A DNA stretch of 20,758 bases, from positions 1 to 20,758 of the forward strand of contig JBHLSH010000071.1 of the NCBI GenBank assembly GCA_048881705.1, written 5' to 3'. The position numbers were made by a program, and so were the translations under genes. The notes beneath the pieces were generated by a model. It had not been told where the DNA came from. It did no database searches and worked only from the letters and a program-made list of their open reading frames with translations. The stretch comes from Candidatus Heimdallarchaeota archaeon (GTDB taxonomy: Archaea; Asgardarchaeota; Heimdallarchaeia; Hodarchaeales; Hodarchaeaceae). Below, piece by piece: positions 9,520 to 15,404 of the stretch (positions are counted from its first letter, which is position 1; every line of letters begins with the position of its first letter).

Positions 9520-9637
9520 GTTCAAATTATTTGTGATGACTTGATATTAGGTTCCGTACCAAAACTAGGATCCGATATGACTGGATTAAACCTTAGAGTC
9601 CCTAGTTGGACAGGTTATCAGCTGGATTATACAGTTT

Positions 9638-10642
9638 ATGCGTAAAGTTCAGGTAATATCTCATACATATTATATCTCGAGGTGATACTGCAAATCAGGT
9701 TTCGAAATTTCCTTTGGATTACTGCATCGCCAAAATTGGGATTTTTTAAAAGAAACTCAATAAAATAGGGTGGAATTTCCTCTATATTTGGAGATAAAAT
9801 CTTCCTTATATCCTATTTAATACAATAGGGGAGCTTAAAGATGTCTTCTTTGATAACATTAGAAACCAATGACCCAAATACCTGGGTACCCCATAACGAC
9901 AAATTCATTCTTGGATACACGGCCGTTTTGGTTCATGTAATGAGTGAATCAGTATCTGCTGTATTTATTTCGCAGAAAATGGATTCTAAAACCAGTAATC
10001 TCTTGATGAAAAACTGTGAGATCTCTTCTATACCTGTTAAGGTACTGCCTTCCGTAAAAGATACGGAAAACGCCGAACCTCTCAACGAATTGTTAACCAT
10101 GGCCTTCGAAACAGGAGCATTTGCCGTTCTTAAAGAACAAACCGTCAAATAGATTTTAGAAAATAGAAGGATTTTCCGATGTCTTCCCGTCCCTTCAATC
10201 CGCAATTTTGAAACTGGTATTTCATTTTAAATCCCGATGTTATATGAAATGCAGGTCTAATTGAGGGTAAGGACTCCATACAGAATTGAGGAGCTATCGG
10301 GTTGCAATACGTTGTGCTGGAAAACGTAGGACTTTAATTGGACATTCTTTAAGCGATAGGGCTGTTAATAAAATTGAGAAAACAGTTAATCCGGGATTGA
10401 ATGTTTTCCAGAATAGTATGGAGCCGCTTATTGATCGAGATATTTTGAAGGGTGATGAAGATATTGGATCGGTGGAAGCTCAGAAAGTCATTGATTAATA
10501 GTTGAACGATTTTCACTATGATCAAGAATCTGACGTTACCATGCCTCTTGATAATATCGATGAAAGTATAAGAAGACTAGGAGAGTACTCCAGAGATTTT
10601 GCGGAAAATGTGATGAATTTCATTCTATTAGCAGAATTTTAA
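9638..10642 (+). pseudogene. phoU: Degraded archaeal phosphate uptake regulator (AbrB-like N-terminus plus PhoU repeats)
   Basis: Collinear relics across frames: MRKVQVISHTYYIS (9638), ITLET..FILGY (ORF 9841), YRVAIR/LENVG (10295-10331), VFQNSMEPLIDRD, and after TAA-TAG (10496-10501) ESIRRLGEYSRDFAENVMN ending in TAA at 10640-10642. The span is about 335 codons, the usual family length. Confidence 0.75.
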
Positions 10643-10711
10643 TAAGTAAGAGCGTGACCAATAATATCAAGCGATGCTTTTACAAAGCTCTCCTCAAAGC
10701 CTGATTCCGCC

Positions 10712-12415
10712 ATGTTTTCTCAATTACAAAGAGAAAAACTCAAACGTATGCAGTACCGCATCATAGATGGCGTTTCGCAGCCAACGGTTACAGCTATATG
10801 GTATTTTATTATCATCCTCTTCTTTTTCTCACTAGTATTACTCCCCACAATCTATGTGTTGATCAACATCCTATTCAACTTATCCGCAGTAAACACTTAT
10901 ATCTTATCAGATCCTCTAAGATTGAACGAAATCATAGATGCCCTTTATTACTCTGTCATAGTTTCTATAATCATATCAGTTATAGATCTAGCTTTTGGGC
11001 TTCCTATCGCATGGACTCTTGTGAGAAAGGATTTTCGATTTAAATCGATTCTCAATGGGATTATTGAGTTACCCTTAGCAGTCCCCACGGCAGGATTGGG
11101 ATTTTCAGTTGCTTTGTTTTGGGGAGTCACCCCAGACGTGGCATTAAAGCCCCCGTTTGCCCTAAATCTGATCCAAGATGCCTTGCCAATTTTGGTTCTA
11201 TTCCATTTCACGACTACGTTCCCTTATGTTGTCCGTTCTCTTGCAGCAATATTGGAGGAGATCGATATTACGCTAGAGATTGCAGCAAGAACCTGTGGTG
11301 CCAGTCGATTTACAGCTGCACGTACCATTACGCTACCGCTATTTCGATCTGGTGTAGCTACTGCAATGGTTCTTAGCCTTGCCAAGAGCTTGAGCGATAC
11401 TGGAGGCGTTACTACCCTTTTGGCTACTATAGGGAGTTTAAAGAGAACTGGTACGGTTTTAACGGGAGATTGGAAACATGCCTACCAAGATGCCATCAAT
11501 CAAGGAACAACGCCTGAACCCTACCTTTTCCCCGGCATGTTATTCATCAGTGTTCTGATGATCCTAATATCACTCTTCTTGGTACTTGTGGCAAAAATTC
11601 TGGCAAGAAAGGCAAGATTACCCTTTAATCGTGTGTTCCCCGCTCTTGAATCTCGAATCAGTGAAGGCTCGGTTCCTAAGGCACGATCAATTGTTTCTTT
11701 TGGCTTTCTGGTGATTTTTGTGTTGATCCCCTCATTTTTCATTGGAATTTATCTCTTTCAAGGATTCACGATTGAAAGATTTGTAAGTGGCAATTGGGGG
11801 ATTTTTGTTCAAAGTATCTTTTTCTCAGTATTCGTCGCTACGGCTGCTACAATACTCAATGTCTGCTTAGGAGTTCCAATGGCTATTTTGATCGCTCGGA
11901 AAAACCATAGAGCGTCCCGAATTCTCGATATTTTTGTAGATATCCCCTATGTTGTGCCAAGTACTGCCTTAGGATTTAGTGTTGGGCTTTTTTGGACTTC
12001 TCAACAATTATTTCCGGTTAATGAACTATTTTTTGTAGTGATGGCTCACGTTAGTATGACATTTCCTTTCATTGTCCGAAATACAATTGGTGGTCTAGCT
12101 GAACTCGATACAGCCCACGAAGAAGCGGCTAGAAGCCTTGGAGCTAGACCCATTCAAGTTTTTCGAAATGTTACACTCCCAGTGATTAAATTTTCAATAA
12201 TTGCTGGAGCTATTATGTCATTTACGAGAAGTATTGGAGAAACGGGGGCAACATTGGCCGTGTCTCCTTTCTCTATAACAGCTCCCGTGTTTATCGTCAA
12301 TCTTATTAAAGAAAGTAATTACTTCTTTGCAGCTTTAACCACGATTATTTTGATACTTATTTCATCCTTACTGATTTTTTCTCTGCGAACTAGGGTTTTG
12401 CGAAAGAAACGGTGA
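10712..12415 (+). CDS. ABC transporter permease, two fused TM domains (CysT/CysW-, ModB/WtpB-like)
   Basis: Two EAA-loop motifs (LEIAARTCGASR and HEEAARSLGARP); FRFKSILNGIIELPLAVPTA and FPYVVRSL resemble CysT. Confidence 0.88.
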   Translation: MFSQLQREKLKRMQYRIIDGVSQPTVTAIWYFIIILFFFSLVLLPTIYVLINILFNLSAVNTYILSDPLRLNEIIDALYYSVIVSIIISVIDLAFGLPIAWTLVRKDFRFKSILNGIIELPLAVPTAGLGFSVALFWGVTPDVALKPPFALNLIQDALPILVLFHFTTTFPYVVRSLAAILEEIDITLEIAARTCGASRFTAARTITLPLFRSGVATAMVLSLAKSLSDTGGVTTLLATIGSLKRTGTVLTGDWKHAYQDAINQGTTPEPYLFPGMLFISVLMILISLFLVLVAKILARKARLPFNRVFPALESRISEGSVPKARSIVSFGFLVIFVLIPSFFIGIYLFQGFTIERFVSGNWGIFVQSIFFSVFVATAATILNVCLGVPMAILIARKNHRASRILDIFVDIPYVVPSTALGFSVGLFWTSQQLFPVNELFFVVMAHVSMTFPFIVRNTIGGLAELDTAHEEAARSLGARPIQVFRNVTLPVIKFSIIAGAIMSFTRSIGETGATLAVSPFSITAPVFIVNLIKESNYFFAALTTIILILISSLLIFSLRTRVLRKKR

Positions 12416-12440
12416 AACATGCCTTCATAAGGGTAAAACG

Positions 12441-13604
12441 ATGACAGCATCGCATATTGGCGTTCATAATCTAGGAAAGAAGTTTGGAAAACTTCAGGTG
12501 TTACATCAGATTAATCTGGAGGTTAATAAAGGTGAATACGTTGTCATTTTGGGACCAAGCGGCGCAGGCAAGACAACTTTTCTCAAACTCATCGCAGGCA
12601 TTTTAAAACCGAGTGAAGGTGAGGTACATAAGAATGGGCGTAATTTGAATCAAATTCCCCCAGAAAAGCGCAATGTCGCCTATTTACCGCAAACTTCGGA
12701 TTATTCTTTGTTTCCTTATATGACAGTCTGGGAAAATACCGTTTTTTCTCCCAGGATGAAGGGGGAGAAATCGTGGGATCAAGTGCGAGCTGTTGGCGAT
12801 GAAATATTAGATCTCGTAGGCTTACGGTTCCGATACGACGCATTGCCGTATGAACTTTCCGGGGGGATGAAACAACGGGTGGCCTTGGCTCGATGTATTG
12901 CCGCTGATGCCGACGTATTTCTTTTGGATGAGCCTCTTCGGGCATTAGATGCCCGTTTGCGACTCAGAATTCGAAAGGAACTCCGAAAGTTAGCAAAAGA
13001 TCTTGAAAAAACCACATTTCATGTTACTCACGATTTCGAGGAAGCTTTAGCTATCGCAGACAAGGTTTTGATTATTAATCAGGGCAGGATCGAACAATAT
13101 GGAACTCCTGATCAGATTTATAACTCTCCGAACTCCTTGTTTGCTGCCTATTTTTTTGGAGAGACAAATCTACTACCAGGAACATTACTCGAAGAGCCGA
13201 ACTCTTCCACTGACGAGTACCTGGTTAAAGTGGGAGAAAGGAGCCTTGTTGTTGAAGTAAATAAGCTTAGAGGCGTCATGAAATCTGCTCAAGAAAAATC
13301 AGATCGGGTTATAATTGCCATCAAAGCTGAAAATATTCTAGTTTCAAGGAACGTCCTTGAAACCGACAAGATAGATGAGGAAAACACTATTGAAGGAATT
13401 ATAAAGGAAATTTTCGATTTAGGGAAATTTGCGAACCTGGAAATACAATCCGAGGTTTTATCAAAGTCTTTGAATGCATATATCCCTTCAGCCGAATTGT
13501 CATCCTTCGATATCGGAATGAAGGTGATTGTTTCCATGCCAAAAGATGCGATTATTTGGTTTCATGAAGATTGGGATCTAATAGGTAAATTGGAGGAGGT
13601 TTAG
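12441..13604 (+). CDS. ABC transporter ATP-binding protein 1 (CysA/PotA/WtpC-like, C-terminal TOBE region)
   Basis: Walker A GPSGAGKT, signature LSGGMKQ, Walker B VFLLDEP, H-loop VTHD. Confidence 0.93.
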   Translation: MTASHIGVHNLGKKFGKLQVLHQINLEVNKGEYVVILGPSGAGKTTFLKLIAGILKPSEGEVHKNGRNLNQIPPEKRNVAYLPQTSDYSLFPYMTVWENTVFSPRMKGEKSWDQVRAVGDEILDLVGLRFRYDALPYELSGGMKQRVALARCIAADADVFLLDEPLRALDARLRLRIRKELRKLAKDLEKTTFHVTHDFEEALAIADKVLIINQGRIEQYGTPDQIYNSPNSLFAAYFFGETNLLPGTLLEEPNSSTDEYLVKVGERSLVVEVNKLRGVMKSAQEKSDRVIIAIKAENILVSRNVLETDKIDEENTIEGIIKEIFDLGKFANLEIQSEVLSKSLNAYIPSAELSSFDIGMKVIVSMPKDAIIWFHEDWDLIGKLEEV

Positions 13605-14699
13605 ATGCCGACAGTTCGGTTAGAGGGCGTTTCCAAGCATTTTGGTCGAATAAAAGCAGTTGATGATATTGACCTGGAAGTTCAGGATGGAGAATATGTG
13701 TTCGTATTGGGACCGTCTGGTTGCGGAAAAACGACTTTAATTAACTGTATTACCGGAATTGTTGGTGTGACCAGAGGGAACATACGTTTTAATGATATTA
13801 TCGTGAATTCAATACCAATTGAGTCGCGTAAATTCGCAATGGTATTTCAGAGTATAGCACTCTTTCCGCATCTATTGGTTGAAGAAAATGTTTCCTATAG
13901 TGCATTTGTAAAAAATAAATCATTAGAATCTCAAAGAGATATTAGCGAAAAAATGCTCGACTTGGTGGACTTACTTCATCAGAAGGGATTGAAACCCCGA
14001 GAACTGAGTGGCGGGGCGCAACAGAAAACCGCACTTGCCAGAGCACTTGCCAATGACCAAAAGCTCTTGATATTGGATGAACCCATCTCTGCATTAGACT
14101 ATAAAGTCAGAGTCTCCTTGAGGTATGAACTACGTCGATTGGTAAAAGAACTAGGTTTAACAGCGATACATATAACGCACGATCAAGAAGAGGCTATGTC
14201 CATTGCAGATCGTATTGTAATTATGCGAGCTGGCAGAATTGTGGAAATAGGAACCCCCCGTCAGCTTTACGAGAGTCCAACCCAGCCATTCACAATGAAT
14301 TTTATTGGAGAATGTAATTTCTTGGAAGGGAGGATCGCAAATCGAACAGGGGATGACTCTTATCAGGTAGAATTTAGAAACAAACAGAAAATTTCTTTAA
14401 AGAATATAACGAAGAGTTTTGAGGAAGAAGAAGCGGTGGCGGTTGCGTTTCGTCCTGAAGTGGGAAAAATCCTTCACGCGGAAAAAGAAAATGCACTGCA
14501 GGGGACAGTCGTGCAGAGAAGATTCTCTGGGGGGTTTCAACGCTATGAGATTAGGTTACTGACAGAAGATCTAATTATGATCGACTCCAAGGCAAAAGCT
14601 AAGGTTAACGATTTGGTGTATGTTGAAATCCCCTTCGATAATGTTCAAATCTTTAAAACACCTAAATTTGGGCTTAGGAAGGCATTAGAATTGGAGTGA
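13605..14699 (+). CDS. ABC transporter ATP-binding protein 2 (CysA/PotA/WtpC-like, C-terminal TOBE region)
   Basis: Walker A GPSGCGKT, signature LSGGAQQ, Walker B LLILDEP, ITHD. It abuts the upstream stop (TAG-ATG), with SD GGAGGAGGT at 13592-13600. Confidence 0.93.
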   Translation: MPTVRLEGVSKHFGRIKAVDDIDLEVQDGEYVFVLGPSGCGKTTLINCITGIVGVTRGNIRFNDIIVNSIPIESRKFAMVFQSIALFPHLLVEENVSYSAFVKNKSLESQRDISEKMLDLVDLLHQKGLKPRELSGGAQQKTALARALANDQKLLILDEPISALDYKVRVSLRYELRRLVKELGLTAIHITHDQEEAMSIADRIVIMRAGRIVEIGTPRQLYESPTQPFTMNFIGECNFLEGRIANRTGDDSYQVEFRNKQKISLKNITKSFEEEEAVAVAFRPEVGKILHAEKENALQGTVVQRRFSGGFQRYEIRLLTEDLIMIDSKAKAKVNDLVYVEIPFDNVQIFKTPKFGLRKALELE

Positions 14700-14705
14700 A
14701 ATAAG

Positions 14706-15404
14706 ATGGCAGATAATGGTGAAAGCAGTCTGTTACATTGGTTTAGACACAGACGTAATCAAGCGATCCTTTCGAAACTGGATTTGCATTCGGAGAAAGT
14801 ACTCGATACCTGTCAAACAGCGGTCGAACTCATTGATCATTTAAGAGACCCAGAGGCGGGTCTTGCTGAAAAAATCTTCAAACGTTTGTCTAGGCAGGAG
14901 CGTTCAGCGGATCATATTCAGGATGAACTTGCCAATGAGATAGCTAGAGGGCTATTACCGCCCGAAATTAGAGAAAAACTATTCAGACTCGTAAGATTGG
15001 TTGACTCAACCGCAAATTGGACGAAAACCGCAGGTAAGAATTTGGCCATGCTAGTCAAGCTTGAGCTGCCTACGGGTCAATTTACGGAAATCCTCGACCA
15101 ATTCCACGCAATGGCCCAATTAAATATCGAAAGCATTCGCGTTTTCAGAAAGATGACCGCAGCATTAGGGAAGGATGATCAGACGATACTTGATAACAGA
15201 CAAGTCATAGAGGATCGAGAACGGGAATGTGATAATGTCTACCTAAGATCTTTGGAGGATATTCTCACGATAGATGAGGAACATAGCTACGCAATTCATT
15301 TTCTTTTCATAGACACTGCTAGAAACTTGGAAAATGCATCCGATTCGGTCTCCAGTGCCTCTGATGTCCTTTATACCATTGTGATGTTGGGAATACCCTC
15401 ATAA
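14706..15404 (+). CDS. DUF47 / PhoU-like putative phosphate transport regulator
   Basis: All-helical twofold repeat with ERSADHIQDEL...LLPPEIREKLFRLVRLVD, ERECD..Y and LENASD, typical of DUF47 (TIGR00153); starts 6 nt after ATPase 2. Confidence 0.82.
   Translation: MADNGESSLLHWFRHRRNQAILSKLDLHSEKVLDTCQTAVELIDHLRDPEAGLAEKIFKRLSRQERSADHIQDELANEIARGLLPPEIREKLFRLVRLVDSTANWTKTAGKNLAMLVKLELPTGQFTEILDQFHAMAQLNIESIRVFRKMTAALGKDDQTILDNRQVIEDRERECDNVYLRSLEDILTIDEEHSYAIHFLFIDTARNLENASDSVSSASDVLYTIVMLGIPS

Follow-up and report, generated by a model that had tools for sequence, protein, structure and literature searches.

A DUF47-linked ABC importer operon in a Hodarchaeales archaeon as a candidate route for phosphate uptake

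The stretch of DNA analysed here (the window) comprises the 20,758 nucleotides (nt) of contig JBHLSH010000071.1, which is contig C71 of the Hodarchaeales genome G000, a metagenome-assembled genome (MAG) of 3.96 Mb in 155 contigs that is 91% complete. A cassette of four forward-strand genes at 10712–15404 encodes a fused double permease, two ATPases of the ATP-binding cassette (ABC) type and a DUF47 protein. Gene context and distribution together tip the balance slightly towards phosphate as the best-supported substrate of this cassette, and with it towards a single operon encoding a type I ABC importer, in which a fused, heterodimer-like permease derived from the sulfate/molybdate/tungstate branch would be driven by two different ATPases that act as a pair and are both catalytically intact, and of which the window's branch would have lost the family's own binding protein. 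Phosphate is favoured because DUF47, AbrB-PhoU regulators and pst genes are linked to the cassette, because its occurrence is complementary to that of the phosphate transporter Pst in the window's class and of PiT in Thermoplasmata, and because ATP sulfurylase (Sat) and MoaC are scarce among the genomes that carry it.

The four-gene operon and its products

The genes of the cassette are separated by gaps of 25, 0 and 6 nt, and a convergent pyruvate kinase gene closes the unit. Its features are as follows.

10712..12415, forward strand: fused two-domain permease of 567 amino acids (aa), with two BPD_transp_1 stretches
12441..13604, forward strand: ABC ATPase 1 of 387 aa, ABC_tran with an expectation value (E) of 7e-34
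13605..14699, forward strand: ABC ATPase 2 of 364 aa, ABC_tran with E 3e-31 and TOBE_2 with E 5e-4
14706..15404, forward strand: DUF47/PhoU_div (PitR-type) accessory of 232 aa, PF01865 with E 3e-21

The open reading frames (ORFs) and their Pfam matches bore out the same-strand operon of a CysT/CysW-like fused permease, two ATPases and DUF47 that had been read from the letters of the window in the original prediction. The ratio of nonsynonymous to synonymous substitution rates (dN/dS) against the sister genome G001 lay between 0.05 and 0.14 across all four genes (0.067 for the permease, 0.14 for ATPase 1, 0.054 for ATPase 2 and 0.052 for DUF47), so that all of them are under purifying selection and the operon is in use.

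In the permease, Pfam recognises two BPD_transp_1 membrane domains, and EAA loops are located at residues 189 and 470. It fell short of every curated NCBIfam cut-off, for the sulfate, molybdate/tungstate and Pst models alike. The scores, in bits over cut-off, were 194/240 for the sulfate subfamily TIGR00969, 157/246 for CysT, 142/329 for CysW, 183/340 for WtpB, 158/183 for ModB and 28/320 for TupB, and those for PstA (56/193) and PstC (42/196) were far beneath the sulfate, WtpB, ModB and CysT scores. The closest solved chains were those of ModB, 2onk_C (E 1e-21) and 3d31_C (7e-17), and a solved fused iron ABC permease, 9j4r_A, ranked after them with a match at E 1e-14 that covered both halves. 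The ranking of the NCBIfam models and the solved-structure matches agree with the earlier claim that the ABC core is of the sulfate/molybdate/tungstate type rather than of the Pst type. Public databases name the permeases of this cassette as "ABC transporter", "iron", "molybdenum", "sulfate", "Fe3+" or "thiamine" permease; the iron, thiamine, molybdenum and sulfate labels are arbitrary, and reconstructions of metabolism in Asgard and DPANN archaea would be led astray by them. The permeases of L158 (6803–9118, reverse strand) and of many Thermoplasmata are 645–790 aa long and carry an N-terminal extension with one or more fibronectin type III domains, in a branch without a binding-protein gene.

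ATPase 1 has the Walker A, signature and H-loop motifs together with the Walker B residues D163-E164-P165, which are invariant in 21 relatives, and ends in a C-terminal extension without a Pfam match. ATPase 2 is 38% identical to ATPase 1, its motif columns are conserved among the relatives and its C-terminal domain is of the TOBE type. The catalytic motifs of both ATPases (Walker A and B, signature and H-loop) are kept in the 21 relatives. On the PstB model, with a cut-off of 343 bits, the two ATPases scored 128–131 bits and the best score anywhere in G000 was 181 bits; the best NCBIfam model for both was PhnT2.

The DUF47 protein consists of a single PF01865 domain, which scored 76.2 bits with a gathering cut-off of 24.4, and its three E/D-x-x-x-D motifs (E65/D69, E172/D176 and E209/D213) do not vary among 27 relatives. 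A profile built from cassette-linked DUF47s gave it 321 bits and the PiT-linked DUF47 of the same genome 29 bits; judged by profile, the cassette-linked DUF47s are a subgroup of their own. Because PhoU of E. coli contacts PstB and PitR works with PitA, DUF47 by analogy most likely binds the ATPase pair. PitR, a single-domain PF01865 protein of S. aureus, has been shown by experiment to be a phosphate accessory regulator that acts only with its cognate importer, and three importer–accessory pairs, namely PhoU–Pst, PitR–Pit and NptA's PhoU domain, were proposed in the same study (mBio 2026, PMC13170248), which covers neither archaea nor ABC-linked DUF47. A three-chain complex prediction of DUF47 with the two ATPases scored 0.44, compared with 0.18 for the best control, at a predicted local distance difference test (pLDDT) of at least 82 for the partners. 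The runs gave 0.44, 0.00 and 0.51, with a contact agreement of at least 0%. Of 80 solved complexes, 58 reached the mark for such predictions, as did 2 of 110 mismatched pairs, and those that reached it with a score of 0.60 or under were only 7 of the 80 solved complexes plus both passing mismatches; the prediction lends weak support to a contact between DUF47 and the ATPases.

Distribution, neighbourhood and cargo of the cassette

Orthologues with 56–98% identity are present in 18 of the 21 genomes of the window's genus, always in the order permease–ATPase–ATPase–DUF47. A search with a permease profile, using one genome per species, gave 80 loci that were then scanned with our own profiles, and these belong to Hodarchaeales/Heimdall, Helarchaeota, other Asgard archaea, Thermoplasmata/Methanomassiliicoccales, Bathyarchaeia, Micrarchaeota, Nitrososphaeria and a few bacteria of the Candidate Phyla Radiation (CPR). 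DUF47 was found within ~4.5 kb in 57 of the 62 assessable archaeal loci, and these range over Hodarchaeales/Heimdall, Thermoplasmata, Bathyarchaeia, Micrarchaeota, Helarchaeota and Nitrososphaeria, so that the linkage to DUF47 proved conserved in the survey. Furthermore, AbrB-PhoU regulators adjoin the cassette divergently at L057, L062 and L063 and downstream at L065, L155 and L156, and at L096 such a regulator is found upstream in the same orientation, the layout that the window's ancestor would have had; the PhoU-type regulators proposed to flank the cassette thus recur beside it. Three Thermoplasmata genomes (G098, G177 and G213) carry the cassette, followed by an AbrB-PhoU gene, head to head with a complete pst operon of pstS, pstCA, pstB and phoU.

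The phosphate transporters were counted in three sets of genomes. Among 40 relatives of the window, PstB was detected in 4 of the 25 genomes with the cassette and in 11 of the 15 without it; it is present in 1 of the 21 genomes of the genus and in all 11 genomes of the cassette-free families f4 and f5. Among 151 Thermoplasmata, PstB had no relation to the cassette (21 of 40 carriers and 61 of 111 non-carriers), PiT was strongly complementary to it (5/40 versus 73/111), and neither system was found in 17 of the 40 carriers versus 14 of the 111 non-carriers. These counts include one unpublished genome, G186, which is cassette-negative with both PstB and PiT and without which the non-carriers number 60/110 for PstB and 72/110 for PiT. 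The third set consisted of 50 carriers from other lineages, 34 of which had neither PstB nor PiT. Na/Pi cotransporters were also absent from a Micrarchaeota genome whose record is titled a complete genome (G052) and from one Helarchaeota genome of 5.8 Mb, and in G052 no candidate phosphate route other than the cassette was found when Pst, PiT and Na/Pi carriers were searched. Thus, the idea that the cassette substitutes for Pst fits the counts of the window's class and does not extend to Thermoplasmata, and the anticorrelation expected with pst and pit was seen for Pst in the class and for PiT in Thermoplasmata, and neither for Pst in Thermoplasmata nor in G000 itself, which keeps a PiT–DUF47 pair.

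There is no binding-protein gene in the operon of the window, a point that the original prediction did not raise. A gene for a binding protein of 370–460 aa (SBP_bac_11, E ~1e-9) lies directly upstream of the cassette in Heimdall f3-type genomes, Bathyarchaeia and Helarchaeota. It is absent from the cassettes of the window's genus, Thermoplasmata and Micrarchaeota, where the upstream genes are unrelated housekeeping genes. The profile of this family recovered its positive control in G028 at 2e-184 and found nothing at E<=10 in G000, nor in G008, G001, G052 and the single-contig genome G010, although an unrelated binding protein may be encoded elsewhere. Profile and NCBIfam searches agreed with the original prediction in that no Wtp-, Mod- or Sbp-type binding protein was found in the cassette. 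The ORFs upstream of the cassette in Thermoplasmata, Micrarchaeota and CPR were considered as hidden binding proteins and rejected, as they encode SRP54, CCA-adding enzyme, malic enzyme and similar proteins.

The relatives' binding protein matched no NCBIfam model, the PhnD/PtxB-type and PhnS models included, and no sequence in the Protein Data Bank. The predicted model of one of them (pLDDT 89) was used in a Foldseek search, and the family has invariant SPA, SNSG and STG motifs at three helix N-termini, which are the usual way of holding an anion. A sulfate-binding protein was the top match, and binders of 2-aminoethylphosphonate, sugar phosphates, polyamines, iron and molybdate were nearly equal to it (all with E 1e-13 to 1e-11 and 12–19% identity), so the fold search did not discriminate between ligands. 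The helix motifs and the occurrence of binders of anions or phospho-compounds among the nearest folds are in keeping with phosphate. Elsewhere in G000, contig C21 has Tup-like permease and ATPase genes 15 kb from a TupA-like binding protein at the contig end (28725–30114 and 45357–46070), and the tiny contig C137 (2–1666) encodes a PhnS2-like binding protein longer than 555 aa; either the TupA-like or the PhnS2-like protein could be an orphan binding protein.

An importer of sulfate/thiosulfate or molybdate/tungstate, with DUF47 as a general modulator of oxyanion transport that has nothing to do with phosphate, appears rather improbable. It would fit the best model and structure matches of the permease (CysT/W, WtpB and ModB), the SBP_bac_11 match and the top fold of the relatives' binding protein, and the TOBE-type ATPase tails, which are typical of ModC and CysA. 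The models for sulfate, molybdate and tungstate were nevertheless missed by wide margins. The genes that would use these anions do not follow the cassette either. ATP sulfurylase was found in 13 of 50 carriers and was missing from the other 37 (0 of 9 Thermoplasmata and 0 of 10 Micrarchaeota), MoaC was found in 23 and missing from 27 (0 of 10 Micrarchaeota and 0 of 6 CPR), and thus all 10 Micrarchaeota were without both. Within the genus, 5 of 21 genomes have Sat and 18 of 21 have the cassette; the carriers G001, the sister genome, and G010, a single contig, are among those without Sat. Of the 8 genomes of the cassette-free family f4, 7 have it. Across genomes the link between the cassette and sulfate fails. 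In addition, Tup-type tungstate genes are already present in G000, and an importer of sulfate or molybdate would not account for the recurrent AbrB-PhoU and pst neighbours. G000 itself has genes for ATP sulfurylase, an NPP-type phosphodiesterase and adenosine 5'-phosphosulfate (APS) kinase in a row on a contig of 3.6 kb (C143, L159; 46–3140, reverse strand), and no SulP sulfate permease was found in this genome.

Several of these observations weigh against phosphate as the cargo. Sulfate import would be useful to G000, which has sat and APS kinase genes without SulP, and so sulfate is not to be dismissed from this genome alone. Both the permease and the relatives' binding protein are closer to the sulfate/molybdate/tungstate systems than to Pst, and the fold search cannot separate the ligands. 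The lack of a family binding protein in G000, G010, G008 and G001 is at odds with a type I importer. DUF47 was found beside none of the four CPR bacterial homologues. The phyletic counts come from related and mostly incomplete MAGs and are patterns rather than independent statistics, and Fisher p-values make the case look stronger than it is, since the genomes are not independent of one another. Finally, the genome of the window retains its PiT–DUF47 pair, and cassette and Pst coexist at the background rate in Thermoplasmata. From this coexistence, it follows that the cassette is not simply a replacement of Pst and might carry a different phosphorus compound.

Such a compound could be phosphite, pyrophosphate, a small organophosphate or a phosphonate, taken up under control of the phosphate regulon by a second scavenging route beside Pst or PiT, which we consider unlikely but worth weighing. 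The three Thermoplasmata cassettes beside a complete pst operon and the PiT–DUF47 pair of G000 are in its favour, and so are the PhnT2 scores of both ATPases and the folds near the relatives' binding protein, which include 4r6y, a binder of 2-aminoethylphosphonate, AfuA and VcA0625, which bind sugar phosphates, and a P5PA-titled chain (6wce). On the other hand, the many carriers without Pst, PiT or, where tested, Na/Pi carriers would be left with no route for orthophosphate. Genes for a carbon–phosphorus lyase, a phosphite dehydrogenase or a phosphatase are not recurrent among the 80 neighbourhoods, where the scanned neighbours are housekeeping genes, and the query used for an NPP/phosphodiesterase neighbour matched nothing in the 80 loci. 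The relatives' binding protein is also without a PhnD/PtxB-type or PhnS match, as stated above. Phosphate therefore stays the cargo towards which the evidence leans.

Some loci differ from the common layout. Two or three DUF47 paralogues are present at some cassettes (L022, 9985–10737, reverse strand; L026, 7296–7985, forward strand; L096, 11958–15309), and the upstream DUF47 of G006 and G011 is closer to the other species' downstream copy (~40% identity) than to its own downstream neighbour (~30%). The sole Pst system found among the 21 same-genus genomes, L154 (G008:C27, 10094–17214), consists of pstS, a pstCA fusion encoding 776 aa, pstB and two phoU genes, with a divergent AbrB-PhoU gene.

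The region upstream of the operon

The region 5' of the operon contains the remains of a regulator gene and a small ORF.

10304..10627, forward strand: AbrB-PhoU pseudogene remnant, C-terminal ~108 codons, by profile and tblastn
9641..9685, forward strand: putative AbrB-type N-terminus vestige (MRKVQ...), by local alignment
9841..10152, forward strand: small ORF of 103 aa, probably a gene of its own, by codon-position bias and dN/dS

A profile of 30 AbrB-PhoU proteins from relatives scored 28.9 bits in frame 2, and 300 shuffled frames scored 1.2 bits at most. Similarly, tblastn with a same-genus paralogue (L151/L152; G015, G010), of the kind that carries PF04014 and PF01895, gave 43% identity over 108 aa (E 3e-22) at 10304–10627, and the in-frame stops TAA TAG at 10496–10501 are inside this alignment. 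The pseudogene is common to G000 and G001, and the substitutions between them by codon position (23/25/16) show no bias, as expected for a dead gene. Its nearest intact relatives include the G008 regulator that is divergent from pstS, fused pstCA, pstB and the two phoU genes, and the next-nearest are regulators adjoining the same cassette in other archaea. The region 9520–10711 had given no Pfam match at E 10 and none with the only intact AbrB-PhoU of the genome (contig C24); these blanks had been taken to refute the relic and were overturned by the lineage profile and the different paralogue. The N-terminal two thirds of the regulator left no trace detectable by tblastn or local alignment upstream of the C-terminal remnant. 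Thus, only the last third of the PhoU relic claimed originally was recovered, and the remainder of the claimed pseudogene was not.

The MRKVQ start at 9641 may be a vestige of the regulator's N-terminus, as it lies in a frame and at a distance from the C-terminal remnant that would fit one former gene; its local alignment score was equalled by 12 of 500 shuffles. The ORF at 9841–10152 is 87% identical in G001, with substitutions of 8/6/22 by codon position and a dN/dS of 0.15, and it has no Pfam or NCBIfam family and no similarity to the AbrB-PhoU regulator. It was rejected as the middle of the pseudogene because it shows no relation to the regulator and its substitutions follow the pattern of a coding gene, and it is probably a small gene in its own right between the ends of the dead regulator. 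A decayed DUF47 or binding-protein gene was also considered for the relic, since a second DUF47 lies upstream in some genomes of the same genus and a binding-protein gene of 1.25 kb occupies that slot in distant relatives, and was rejected as no real frame beat the shuffles.

Directly 5' of the permease start, the 49 nt at 10663–10711 are identical in G000 and G001, and the adjoining relic is ~20% diverged; this stretch, CTTTTACAAAG, is likely a promoter or leader. At L019 (G010), a triple direct repeat, ATATTGACT, is located ~150–200 nt 5' of the permease gene and upstream of the cassette promoter's conserved TTTAAAT box, and the repeat could be a regulator site. When promoter words shared by the cassette, pst and PiT were sought in the genus, only this repeat and loose ATTGAC words in the pst control region of G008 were found, with nothing usable for the window.

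The dead regulator, shared with G001, and the missing binding protein, which was found neither in the 91%-complete assembly nor in three genomes of the same genus, would both suit a cassette that in this lineage is a leftover and no longer imports anything. This appears very improbable, as all four genes are intact with the low dN/dS given above, orthologues are kept in most members of the genus, and conservation is just as strong in those branches of Thermoplasmata and Micrarchaeota that have no binding protein.

Proposed mechanism and comparison with known systems

As an importer in use, the cassette would carry inorganic phosphate or a very close phosphorus oxyanion into the cell. DUF47 would be its dedicated PhoU-like accessory, which, located on the cytoplasmic ATPases, may throttle transport or report it according to the phosphate status of the cell, by analogy with PhoU–Pst and PitR–PitA. 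An AbrB-PhoU transcription regulator would once have stood directly upstream of the cassette and has since decayed in this lineage. A further and tentative proposal, which we hold to be possible rather than probable, is that the cassette represents a fourth, independently evolved phosphate importer–accessory pairing, a DUF47-gated ABC importer of sulfate/molybdate descent that works free of a binding protein in Hodarchaeales, Thermoplasmata and Micrarchaeota and is the sole entry of phosphate in many DPANN and other archaea. Full-text literature searches on DUF47 together with ABC transporters or archaea, and on the Pit accessory protein, turned up no account of an ABC–DUF47 system.

At present, phosphate uptake in prokaryotes is ascribed to three systems, namely Pst, PiT and the Na/Pi carriers, and many of the archaeal genomes searched show none of them yet carry the cassette, so that this gap would be filled if phosphate is its cargo. 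The cassette would then also add a new importer–accessory pair to the PhoU/PitR scheme recently described in bacteria and provide an example of an ABC importer that switched its anion specificity, and the rule that a type I ABC importer requires a binding protein would be called into question by those of its branches that have none.

Like PstSCAB-PhoU, the cassette encodes a type I importer driven by ATP, its permease part has two domains, and the operon ends in a gene for a dedicated accessory of the PhoU superfamily in the cytoplasm. AbrB-PhoU regulators accompany archaeal Pst as well, and one divergent control region serves both systems in the three Thermoplasmata genomes. It differs from Pst in having two different long ATPases with TOBE-like tails in place of one short PstB, a DUF47 accessory (PF01865) in place of the two-repeat PhoU (PF01895), and in its relatives an SBP_bac_11-like binding protein, whereas PstS is of the PBP_like_2 type; its permease reached 42–56 bits on the PstC and PstA models, for which the cut-offs are near 195. 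With PitA–PitR it shares the accessory family and the single PF01865 domain, and PiT is complementary to it in Thermoplasmata, but the transporter is an ABC importer and PitA is a secondary carrier of the PiT type. The FbpABC/AfuABC/ThiBPQ-type systems likewise have one polypeptide with two BPD_transp_1 domains, but their permease similarity is weaker than that of ModB or CysT, and they have one ATPase and no PhoU-like partner. The closest permease relatives are those of CysPTWA, ModABC and WtpABC, which also share the TOBE-type ATPase tails and, with the relatives of the cassette, the SBP_bac_11-type binding protein. Unlike these systems, the cassette scores below their cut-offs, is without association to ATP sulfurylase or molybdenum cofactor synthesis, and combines a fused permease and two distinct ATPases with DUF47 and phosphate-regulator neighbours.

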